Source: a virus
Lineage: Duplodnaviria > Heunggongvirae > Uroviricota > Caudoviricetes
Strand: one strand, 5' to 3'
IMG/VR virus record: IMGVR_UViG_2703718800_000011
DNA length: 6,095 nt
Part shown: positions 1,828 through 4,121 of the stretch, piece after piece
How positions within the stretch are numbered: position 1 is the stretch's first letter
Layout: each line of letters opens with the position of its first letter
The notes under the pieces: generated by a model
What the model was told of the DNA's origin: nothing
Seen by the model: only the letters and a program-made list of their open reading frames with translations
Databases searched by the model: none
Translations under genes and position numbers: made by a program

Positions 1828-2328
1828 TCAGACTTTCGGCAAATCGTAGCGACATAACCATTCATCCGCCGAACGGCGGGCCTCAAGACCGGGGAGTTTC
1901 ACCCCCTTCGAATAAATCCAGCGGATGTACTGCTTACAGGACGCGGGCATCTGCCCGGCATTGATCAGGCGCAGAAGCGTGGAGTTGCGGAAGTTCGTTT
2001 CACCAGCCCAGAAGATCCACGAAGCCAGCGCCACCGTCTGACCACGGGTAAGCGGCACCTGAACACGCCGATCAATGGCCGCAAAGGCCCATTTCATGTC
2101 CTTTTCCAGTAGTTCCAGGCATTCTTCATCCGTCAGGGTCATACCCGGTTTCACATCCGGGCCGGTATGGCCGTAACAGATGGTTGGTGTACCGGTGGGA
2201 TCGATATACGTGGAGTTTTCTTTCCCTTCCCAGTAACCGGTGTAATGCGTGGTAATGGTGAACGTCCCGGCACCGGCCATAACAAGGGCAATCAGCTTTT
2301 TACGCAGTGGTGCGGGGAGTTTTGGCAT
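1828..2328 (-). CDS. SAR (signal-anchor-release) endolysin, phage lysozyme family (GH24, T4/P21-type)
   Basis: 166 aa. Weakly hydrophobic Gly/Ala-rich N-terminus LIALVMAGAGTFTITT typical of SAR domains. E...D...T catalytic arrangement in WEGKENSTYIDPTGTPTICYGHTG, then the GETNFRNSTLLRLINAG and GLEARR motifs that I recall from P21 R-type lysozymes. Confidence 0.85.
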   Translation of the reverse strand: MPKLPAPLRKKLIALVMAGAGTFTITTHYTGYWEGKENSTYIDPTGTPTICYGHTGPDVKPGMTLTDEECLELLEKDMKWAFAAIDRRVQVPLTRGQTVALASWIFWAGETNFRNSTLLRLINAGQMPASCKQYIRWIYSKGVKLPGLEARRSADEWLCRYDLPKV

Positions 2329-2330
2329 TG

Positions 2331-2366
2331 TTACGCTGTCTCATGATGTTCTCTGAGTCAGCGTAA
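2331..2366. promoter_or_regulatory. 36 bp imperfect palindrome abutting the endolysin start codon
   Basis: Plus strand TTACGCTG-t-CTCA-tgatgttctc-TGAG-t-CAGCGTAA: 12 complementary bp in two blocks around a 10 nt centre. It lies in the 71 bp gap between the Mor/C-like stop (2400) and the endolysin ATG (2328). Could be an operator for a dimeric regulator or an mRNA hairpin covering the endolysin ribosome-binding region. Confidence 0.3.
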
Positions 2367-2399
2367 CGGTGAAGGAAAGGCGGCAGGCTTTGCGGAATA

Positions 2400-2822
2400 T
2401 CAGAAAAGTGGCGGTTGCGTTCTTGCCAGATGCAGACGGCGCTGTTCGCGTATGACGGTATAAATCTGGGTTTCTGACATCCTGTAATGGCGGCGCAGGG
2501 TTTCAATTTTTTCGCCCTGGCTCCAGCGGGAAAAAATCTCATTATTGCGCAGTTCGGTGAAAAGGGATTCACCGACCGGGAGATAATAACCACGCCCGCC
2601 CATGTACCCGGCCTGTGCGGCCGCAACTTTACGGGCAAGCATTCCTGCCTGAGCAGGTTCAATCCCCTGACGGTGCAGTTCAGCACTGATCACATCAACC
2701 AGGTCCCGCAGCGTGCCGGGCCAGTTCTTTTTCAGCTCATCATCAGGAATGTCATCCAGACGGTCAATCAGCGCGTGCAGCTGTTCGCTGTCACCAAACA
2801 TGCTCATCTGTGTTTCAGCCAT
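2400..2822 (-). CDS. Mor/C-family transcriptional activator (Mu middle/late activator homolog)
   Basis: 140 aa. N-terminal acidic region with MFGDSEQLHALIDRLDD; C-terminal GGRGYYLPVGESLFTELRNNEIFSRWSQGEKIETLRRHYRMSETQIYTVIREQRRLHLARTQPPLF matches my recollection of the Mor family (GG..YIP, RN..I...F.G, HTH, and the Mu Mor C-terminus ...RRMRRLKYRQYQPSLL). GGAGG SD 5 nt upstream of ATG 2822; located immediately upstream of the endolysin. Confidence 0.75.
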   Translation of the reverse strand: MAETQMSMFGDSEQLHALIDRLDDIPDDELKKNWPGTLRDLVDVISAELHRQGIEPAQAGMLARKVAAAQAGYMGGRGYYLPVGESLFTELRNNEIFSRWSQGEKIETLRRHYRMSETQIYTVIREQRRLHLARTQPPLF

Positions 2823-2854: not shown

Positions 2855-2888
2855 TTTAAAATAAAAATCCCGCGCTGTGGCGGGATTT
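2855..2888 (-). terminator. Intrinsic terminator hairpin, copy 1 (strong for minus-strand transcripts)
   Basis: AAATCCCGC-gctgtg-GCGGGATTT at 2865..2888: perfect 9 bp stem, 6 nt loop. On the minus-strand RNA the stem is followed by UUUUUAUUUU. Sits 43 nt upstream of the Mor/C-like ATG. Confidence 0.6.
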
Positions 2889-3162: not shown

Positions 3163-3585
3163 ATGAAACAACCTCCATCTTTGCTTTTATCGTGCCCACC
3201 AGAACTGGCCCATGAACTCAATGATCTGGCGAAAGAGTATAAACTTACAAATCATAATATAGAAGCAGCAACACTTAGTGCTGCCGGAAGCGATATTGTA
3301 TTGATCGTTCTGGCCGCAGCTTCATGCGATGGGTTCTGGCAGGCATTAGCCAGTATGTTTCAGACGTGGTTACATCGTAAACCAACAAAACAAACACCCC
3401 CGGAAAAGAAAGTTATTCGTAGCGTCATTGTTCGTAGCTGGGAACACTATCAGGAGACAACTAAACAAACTGAATTTTATAACTTTGATGCTGATGAGCT
3501 GGCTAAATTGATAGCGTTATATGAAAAACCAGATGAAACAATTGGTTGCATAATCCCGTCAGAAACGGAAATTCAGGAAAAATAA
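3163..3585 (+). CDS. Hypothetical protein encoded by an opposite-strand, AT-rich moron cassette; one predicted hydrophobic helix; family not recognised
   Basis: 140 aa. The only convincing plus-strand ORF in the window. ATG 3163 is preceded by AAGGAAG with a 6 nt spacer. Stop TAA (3583..3585) runs directly into terminator copy 2. Composition is visibly more AT-rich than the flanking phage genes. Hydrophobic segment SDIVLIVLAAASCDGFWQALASMF; C-terminal half charged and acidic. Confidence 0.6.
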   Translation: MKQPPSLLLSCPPELAHELNDLAKEYKLTNHNIEAATLSAAGSDIVLIVLAAASCDGFWQALASMFQTWLHRKPTKQTPPEKKVIRSVIVRSWEHYQETTKQTEFYNFDADELAKLIALYEKPDETIGCIIPSETEIQEK

Positions 3586-3611: not shown

Positions 3612-4121
3612 TTAACAGGGGAATGATTTTTCATACAGCCTGCAAACGCGCTCATAACTCATCACTGCACGCTCCGACATATCCAGGGCTGCCAGCATTT
3701 TGCGGCGGTGCCAGCGTTTGAGACGCTCCAGCACATCAGAGGCCAGCTCGGGGTGTTGCTCCAGCCACTGCCAGTTAGCCACACCTTCGCCGCCGTTCTG
3801 CGCGGCCGTCTGCGATTGCACCCAGCGGTTAAGGGCCGTTTCCGCACCATCAGAAATAAAGCCCTGCCGGTGCATCACTTTCCAGATGGCGCGAATTTTG
3901 GCGGTCACCGTACCCGGCTTTAAGGCCCGGTTAACCGGTTTCTGACGCACTTTAAAACCGCGTTTTTTGAAAACATCCAGTACGCGGGATAACTCATCCG
4001 GTGACATATCCCGGCAACTGGCTTTACCGGTGGCTGCCAGCAGTGCGGATGTATAGGTTTCATCATCCAGAGCAAGCTCGCGTTTTGCCACATGAATGGC
4101 AGATATCAGTTTTCCTCTCAT
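3612..4121 (-). CDS. GemA-like protein (Mu gp16 family, DUF1018-type)
   Basis: 169 aa. N-terminus MRGKLISAIHVAKRELALDDETYTSALLAATGKASCRDMSPDELSRVLDVFKKRGF fits my recollection of the gp16/GemA signature (LI..IH.AK..L.LDD..YR.LL...TGK.S..DM...EL..VL). Start overlaps the upstream stop as ATGA. Confidence 0.7.
   Translation of the reverse strand: MRGKLISAIHVAKRELALDDETYTSALLAATGKASCRDMSPDELSRVLDVFKKRGFKVRQKPVNRALKPGTVTAKIRAIWKVMHRQGFISDGAETALNRWVQSQTAAQNGGEGVANWQWLEQHPELASDVLERLKRWHRRKMLAALDMSERAVMSYERVCRLYEKSFPC

Follow-up and report, generated by a model that had tools for sequence, protein, structure and literature searches.

A predicted late promoter within a conserved inverted repeat as a candidate translational gate for the endolysin gene of Mu-like prophages

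The ribosome-binding site of gene e, a lysis gene of bacteriophage T4, is hidden in a hairpin of the early, long transcripts, and the late transcripts of the gene are well translated (PMC3014915, reviewing McPheeters et al. 1986). The 5' strand of the inhibitory hairpin is encoded by DNA in which the late promoters of gene e are located, and the T4 genes soc, 49 and I-TevI share this design (PMC3014915). In bacteriophage Mu, according to the annotation of its record, the ribosome-binding region of the toxic late gene mom lies in an mRNA stem-loop, which is opened when the Com protein binds the RNA. Davis, Simons and Kleckner are said to have described, in 1985, a 'fold-back inhibition' of transposase translation in read-through transcripts of IS10/Tn10. 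In that system the ribosome-binding region is paired with an upstream segment in transcripts that enter the element from elsewhere, and transcripts from the element's own promoter start inside the structure and escape. A literature search did not find such a gate mechanism in Mu-like phages, for which a promoter-in-hairpin gate is apparently undescribed.

The window analysed here, meaning the whole stretch of 6,095 nucleotides, is part of an E. coli Mu-like prophage (99.9 % identity to strain JNEC-KY203). Copies of the prophage at 90-94 % identity are found in 231 of 5426 complete E. coli genomes (about 4 %), with O157 strains among the carriers, and also within two Stx phage records. The palindrome immediately upstream of its endolysin gene, lys, had been read in an earlier note either as a binding site for a dimeric activator or repressor or as an mRNA structure occluding the ribosome-binding region. 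We propose, with a probability of about 0.58, that the palindrome places a promoter inside a hairpin and thereby gates the translation of the endolysin. Such a gate would most likely be a new instance of the mechanism already known from T4 gene e. Support computed here comes from the repeat itself, its conservation and covariation and the accessibility of the start region, and the promoter architecture is assigned by homology.

As in gene e of T4, the gene concerned encodes a lysis enzyme, a longer, earlier RNA would be locked, the late promoter is predicted in the DNA coding for the 5' strand of the hairpin, and the arrangement is kept in related phages with different sequences. The promoter type differs, that of T4 being a gp55 late promoter (TATAAATA), whereas a sigma-70 promoter of the Mu type, dependent on a Mor/C activator and with a TAnnCT -10 hexamer and an upstream C-like box, is predicted here. 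Unlike T4, the element is a temperate transposable prophage, and the RNA made earlier would be the transcript of the late activator. For T4 the structure and an effect of about 100-fold have been demonstrated, whereas the gate proposed for lys is predicted from sequence and computed folding. The IS10/Tn10 system, the sequences of which are unrelated, serves insulation from external promoters and not temporal control in a phage. The mom gene depends on Com to open its hairpin, whereas in the proposed lys gate no protein would be needed, because the position of the promoter decides.

The relevant genes of the window are all located on the minus strand, as follows:

3612-4121, minus strand: gemA
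2865-2888, minus strand: early-operon intrinsic terminator, lying just ahead of the activator gene (terminator scan)
2400-2822, minus strand: Mor/C-family activator gene, C orthologue (Pfam Mor, E = 1e-30)
1828-2328, minus strand: endolysin gene lys, with ATG at 2328-2326 (Pfam Phage_lysozyme, E = 6e-37)
minus strand: spanin-like and TraR-like genes

The activator gene is the sole Mor/C gene of the 41-kb prophage, and the possession of a single such gene distinguishes this prophage family from Mu. It was called Mor/C-like in the earlier note, which stands as far as the family is concerned; within the family the predicted protein is nearer to C of Mu, with 40 % identity, than to Mor, with 28 %. 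The endolysin has 39 % identity with gp22, the SAR endolysin of Mu, and its start codon (2328-2326) is kept as ATG or GTG in all relatives. Inspection of the sequence before lys of the window revealed no good Shine-Dalgarno sequence. Throughout the E. coli group lys has an AUG without a recognisable Shine-Dalgarno sequence, and in the Salmonella and Citrobacter lineages a GGAG is present 6 nt ahead of a GUG. The intrinsic-terminator scan of the window group found no terminator between the activator gene and lys, so that the transcript of the activator gene should enter lys. The order of activator gene and lys is the same in Mu; there, however, C and lys are separated by an intrinsic terminator, and the ribosome-binding region of lys is not covered by a hairpin of this kind.

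Two other features of this part of the window were observed. An ORF of 140 amino acids without a Pfam match (3163-3585, plus strand) lies antisense between gemA and the activator gene and is absent from close relatives. The insertion containing it is flanked by two copies of the early-operon terminator (about 3608-3584 and 2888-2865, minus strand), both of the sequence AAATCCCGCCACAG[C/T]GCGGGATTTT, and its location between the two copies suggests that the ORF is a moron gained via recombination at the terminator. Within the activator ORF there is a 15-nt inverted repeat (2506-2537, ATTTTTTCGCCCTGG/CCAGCGGGAAAAAAT) with 87 % complementarity and a gap of 2 nt.

On the plus strand, positions 2331-2366 upstream of lys read TTACGCTGtCTCA-TGATGTTCTC-TGAGtCAGCGTAA. 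The palindrome is real and as described in the earlier note, and the repeat search adds one pair to it (2330-2367). The repeat as noted stops 2 nt before the endolysin ATG in minus-strand terms, and the extended repeat stops 1 nt before it. Its parts are:

2330-2367, minus strand: inverted repeat / RNA hairpin (repeat search, folding, conservation)
2367-2354, minus strand: 5' arm of the hairpin, GTTACGCTGACTCA
2353-2344, minus strand: loop of the hairpin, GAGAACATCA
2343-2330, minus strand: 3' arm of the hairpin, TGAGACAGCGTAAC

According to the repeat search, the arms are 14 nt each, separated by 10 nt and complementary at 13 of the 14 positions (93 %), the single unpaired position being the central t/t (A/A on the minus strand). 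The window holds one repeat of such quality (14-nt arms, at most 1 mismatch, loop of 3-20). In 1000 dinucleotide-preserving shuffles of the window, against which its rarity was tested, equal repeats occurred at a mean of 0.026, with 1.6 % of the shuffles containing at least one. Folding of the minus-strand RNA, which had been proposed as a check in the earlier note, gave a hairpin over the start region: the RNA of 2325-2372 folds at -20.1 kcal/mol, compared with -6.1 ± 1.9 kcal/mol for shuffles (z = -7.5), and none of 200 shuffles folded as stably. In the window group the antisense fold is slightly more stable than the sense fold. Because it is a near-perfect DNA palindrome, the repeat of the window alone cannot separate an RNA function from a DNA function.

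Two readings of the palindrome were rejected. It is not an intrinsic terminator, as no T-run follows the stem on either strand and the terminator scan gives 2888-2865 only. Nor does it correspond to a known cis-regulatory RNA of Rfam, since the covariance-model search was without a match at the palindrome; the sole match in this search was a sub-threshold snoRNA located away from it. An out-of-frame upstream ORF of 14 codons (2300-2344, minus strand) overlaps the lys start, with its AUG (2344-2342) at the junction of loop and 3' arm and a GAGA located 5 nt upstream of the AUG. This ORF is invariant in the E. coli group and absent from the other lineages, for which reason it is probably incidental, although on the late mRNA its start could be a competitor of that of lys.

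Upstream of lys, a late promoter is predicted which extends into the palindrome:

2386-2403, minus strand: conserved block CTGATATTCCGCAAAGCC, predicted C-like activator site at about -50 to -33 (conservation, recurrence, alignment with Mu)
2368-2385, minus strand: promoter spacer, T/C-rich, of fixed length and variable sequence
2360-2365, minus strand: predicted -10 hexamer TACGCT, inside the 5' arm (spacing, alignment with Mu)
2353-2354, minus strand: predicted late lys start, 6-7 nt past the hexamer, where 5' arm and loop meet (homology and spacing)

The Mor-to-lys intergenic regions were gathered from relatives whose activators are from 100 % down to 46 % identical, which resulted in 22 distinct sequences. 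Most of the relatives were drawn from viral contigs and exact-protein look-ups, and a scan of genome contigs gave 3 loci. Where single relatives or their coordinates have to be told apart, locus handles (L followed by a number) are used. The block, which overlaps the stop codon of the activator gene, is common to all 22 distinct sequences in the form CTGA..TACCG[C/G]AA..CC. The hexamer is found 30 nt downstream of the start of CCGC in the 22 distinct relatives, and at 29 nt in L006 (Salmonella). The forms found in relatives are TACGCT, TATTCT, TACTCT, TAATCT, TATCCT and TACCTT, with the consensus TAnnCT, of which T1, A2, C5 and T6 are reported to be invariant across relatives. Inspection of the sequence from the block to the ATG gave no TAnnnT hexamer other than TACGCT. 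The block recurs, with a TATGCT hexamer at identical spacing, upstream of the protease gene I of the same prophage, where the arrangement is also kept in relatives. The block-plus-hexamer pattern fits only these two sites, lys and gene I, in 41 kb, and a third late promoter, the analogue of PP, was not found with this pattern in the 41-kb locus. The sigma-70 scan gave no canonical -35/-10 pair at the lys promoter, as is expected for an activator-dependent promoter. The conserved block was itself considered as a -10 and rejected, since there are relatives in which it has no A at position 2 or no T at position 6 (GAGTTA, GAACTA).

Mu C binds a 16-bp dyad centred at -43.5 (PMC2582627), the consensus of which is given in PMC12867686. 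The GenBank record of Mu contains four S1-mapped late promoters annotated as in-register 67-bp features, and the Mu starts were rebuilt from these features together with the -43.5 statement in PMC2582627. In that register the late -10 hexamers of Mu are TAGACT, CAAACT, TATCCT and TAAGAT. The centre of the Pmom C box (TTAT-N6-ATAA) lies 43.5 nt before column 54, in agreement with the published position (PMC2582627). MAFFT aligns the block of the window with the right half of the Mu C box, CATAAyCCC, the hexamer TACGCT with the Mu late -10 hexamers, and CTCAGAGAA of the window with the Plys start region of Mu, ATCAGAGAA (TCA-GAGAA). Mu Plys thus resembles the predicted promoter in having its box at about -52 to -34, a TAnnCT -10 with no -35 and the start region TCAGAGAA, and differs from it in the activator box, which is CCGCAAA here and CATAA in Mu.

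On account of the spacing, the recurrence of the block, the alignment with Mu and the centre of the C site at -43.5, the -10 is predicted at 2365-2360 and the activator site from about -50 to -33, with the start at about 2354/2353. The lys promoter appears to be of the Mu type, with a box near -43.5 common to the two late promoters and a -10 without a -35. Transcription of lys is predicted to be C-dependent from the nature of the activator gene (Pfam Mor, 40 % identity to Mu C).

At the promoter of gene I, the PI analogue (L001 28420-28472), the -10 hexamer lies just 6 nt ahead of the ATG (TATGCT-GCCGGA-ATG), and a diverged lineage (L084/L089/L090, about 530-603) has equal spacing with another sequence, CACACT-GGCGGC-ATG. 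A leaderless gene I mRNA is predicted, because the hexamer is 6 nt from the ATG. Both PI-analogue lineages have an inverted repeat around the hexamer which abuts the ATG, with sequences that differ from the lys palindrome. Mu PI (L062 18026-18049) has a perfect 7-bp inverted repeat, CTGCTCA-N10-TGAGCAG, over its mapped start, and this repeat can be aligned with the core and loop of the window palindrome. The core of the late-promoter block at PI (GAAATCCCGCAAAA, L001 28420-28437) has the same sequence as the half-site AAATCCCGC in the stem of the terminator at 2865-2888 (minus strand), and because of this identity the C-like activator might bind the terminator ahead of its own gene. In Mu, Pm similarly overlaps the terminator t9.2.

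When the palindrome is placed on the predicted promoter map, the 5' arm, together with the hexamer, occupies -14 to -1, the loop +1 to +10 and the 3' arm +11 to +24, with the AUG at +26. Since the 5' arm holds the predicted -10, the late lys transcript cannot contain the 5' arm, whereas read-through RNA would contain both arms, because it starts upstream and there is no terminator between the activator gene and lys. The hairpin is therefore expected only in read-through RNA and not in late transcripts of lys. The structure computed for the predicted late RNA, which begins at 2354, does not exceed that of shuffles (z = +0.87). Opening the region from -18 to +6 of lys has a computed cost of 15.1 kcal/mol in the read-through RNA and 4.6 kcal/mol in the late RNA. 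The former is the highest read-through value among 43 prophage genes, and the shift of 10.5 kcal/mol is likewise the largest among the 43, with 6.4 kcal/mol for the runner-up. The change in accessibility has the same sign in 15 of 15 relatives tested.

In the mechanism which we propose, RNA made before late activation would start upstream, span the C-like gene and continue into lys, so that the earlier, gated transcript would be the mRNA of the late activator itself. With both arms present, this long RNA would form a 13-bp hairpin (-20 kcal/mol) 1 nt from the AUG, with the whole ribosome-binding region buried, and the membrane-targeted (SAR) endolysin would not be produced early, its ribosome-binding region being hidden. 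As the C-like protein accumulates, it would activate the Plys-type late promoter, with a start at about 2354/2353, at the base of the loop. The new late transcripts would start past the 5' arm, have no hairpin but an open leader of 25 nt, and be translated. We infer the 5' ends and the read-through, as well as the consequences for translation and the advantage of not lysing too early. The term 'switch', operating between classes of transcript, suits the hairpin better than that of a constant brake. The suggestion in the earlier note that an mRNA structure occludes the ribosome-binding region is borne out in kind by the fold and by covariation, but not as a constant brake, the late mRNA being predicted without the 5' arm.

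Among the 13 distinct sequences of the E. coli group (33 loci), none of the 26 paired positions varies, and the dyad is conserved. The central mismatch varies between A and G and one loop position between T and C. In the adjacent spacer 9 of 18 positions are variable, and in the activator block 1 of 18. The stem of the Salmonella and Citrobacter lineages is GTTAYTC-T-CGGCA...TGCCG-GAGTRAC, which buries the GGAG Shine-Dalgarno sequence, and that of a more distant lineage is CTTATCC...GGATAAG. The G:C pair at -9 of the window stands where the GGAG lineages have a U:A pair belonging to GGAG.

Pairing was assessed from the duplex energy of the promoter core (-18 to -1) with the ribosome-binding region, compared with that obtained for shuffled ribosome-binding regions, in eleven representatives. 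The core pairing was better than that of the shuffles (p ≤ 0.02) in 7 of 11, namely the E. coli group, L006, L007, L010, L011, L046 and L047, marginal in L054 and L059 (p = 0.08-0.09) and not significant in L044 and L052. Explicit pair lists contain covarying pairs at -9 (G:C, U:A, C:G), -10 (C:G, U:A), -13 (U:A, C:G, A:U) and -14 (G:C, C:G). The intermediates of the compensatory changes are G·U pairs, five of which are included in the helix of L006 (Salmonella). Cognate duplexes of core and ribosome-binding region have a mean energy of -14.2 kcal/mol, compared with -9.2 kcal/mol when the two were swapped between lineages (P = 0.0002), and among 5040 permutations the identity arrangement alone reaches the observed value. 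The pairing in the sense strand was much stronger than that in the antisense strand in L006 (-13.9 and -5.4 kcal/mol, respectively), L011 (-14.2 and -5.9 kcal/mol) and L007 (-16.5 and -9.9 kcal/mol). Such an excess of sense-strand pairing, seen beyond the E. coli group, is what G·U pairs in RNA would give and not what is expected of a symmetric DNA/protein site.

No consensus helix emerged when RNAalifold was applied to 15 relatives in a plain MAFFT alignment, since the register of the 3' arm differs by 1-2 nt between lineages. In L011, L044 and L046 the lowest-energy fold is another helix, formed by the +1 region with the start codon. Since L011 and L044 carry both a terminator and some complementarity, terminator and hairpin are not strictly alternatives. 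The hairpin loop of L006 (about 3485-3510), GAACATCA, is the reverse complement of the window loop TGATGTTC (2344-2353), lies between conserved CTCA/TGAG arms and looks like an inversion of the palindrome spacer.

If the late start lay upstream, the hairpin would be present on every lys mRNA and would act as a constant translational brake or as a 5' stabiliser. The hairpin is stable and abuts the AUG, and its pairing with the ribosome-binding region is conserved, as such a role would predict. The sole TAnnnT hexamer downstream of the block sits in the 5' arm, however, the 30-nt spacing between block and hexamer is fixed and aligns with the mapped late promoters of Mu, and relatives have forms of the block (GAGTTA, GAACTA) that would make a poor -10. 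A hairpin of -20 kcal/mol covering a region with no Shine-Dalgarno sequence would also nearly abolish an essential lysis function, and we regard the constant brake as unlikely. We give about the same low weight to a DNA operator, in which a dimeric repressor of phage or host, bound to the palindrome (centre near +5), would block the late lys promoter until it is removed. A near-perfect DNA palindrome at -14 to +24 is in a typical operator position, Mu PI shares the core CTG(A)CTCA-N10-TGAG(A)CAG, and paired half-sites would also co-vary if the specificity of the protein changed. Half-sites of 14 nt and 38 bp overall are nevertheless large for one dimer, and no further copy is present in 41 kb of prophage. 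In relatives the complementarity needs G·U pairs and is much reduced when the opposite strand is read, a pattern not to be expected of a symmetric protein site. Between lineages the 3' arm keeps its register with the start codon and not with the promoter, and the L006 loop has been inverted without loss of the arms.

The alternative raised in the earlier note that the palindrome is the binding site of the Mor/C-type activator itself is highly improbable. In favour of it, the phage has a Mor/C-family activator and the dyad adjoins a late gene, but Mu C and Mor bind 16-bp dyads at -43.5 (PMC2582627), as against 38 bp here, and a start at the corresponding distance would fall about 40 nt inside lys; the position of the activator is held by the other conserved element (2403-2386). 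The half-sites are missing from the second late promoter, and in 41 kb only the two arms match at 0-1 mismatch, with 29 matches at up to 3 mismatches where 28.8 are expected. We also doubt that the palindrome is a 3'-end element of the activator mRNA, such as an exonuclease barrier or a processing site, or a functionless product of DNA-level events. The hairpin is located 33 nt past the activator stop codon, and the inverted loop of L006 speaks for DNA-level palindrome dynamics at this site. Yet the hairpin has no U-tract and so is not an intrinsic terminator, its abutment to the lys start is kept despite differing stems, and it covaries with the ribosome-binding region, with 0 of 26 paired positions varying as against 9 of 18 in the spacer. 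Similarly doubtful is that the repeat is a DNA-level element of Mu-family late promoters and not an RNA device only, either bound by an unknown factor or coupling promoter opening to replication by extrusion, which could occur under supercoiling or replication. Besides the lys promoter studied here, Mu PI has a repeat straddling -10/+1, and so do the PI analogues of two lineages, where the sequences are different; since a temporal gate is less sensible at PI promoters, this hints at a possible DNA-level role. Late transcription of Mu depends on replication and the sliding clamp (PMC12867686).

If the endolysin is gated as proposed, a compact natural device whose translation depends on the choice of promoter would be at hand, together with a concrete promoter model (activator box, spacer and TAnnCT) for the single-activator branch of the Mor/C family. 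The practical value would be modest, consisting of better annotation of late promoters and of lysis timing in Mu-like prophages. For the family, the gate would explain how it does without the terminator that Mu has between the late activator and lys. Mu-like prophages would then avoid early lysozyme as T4 does, via an unrelated type of promoter, and this would be a clear case of convergent regulatory design.
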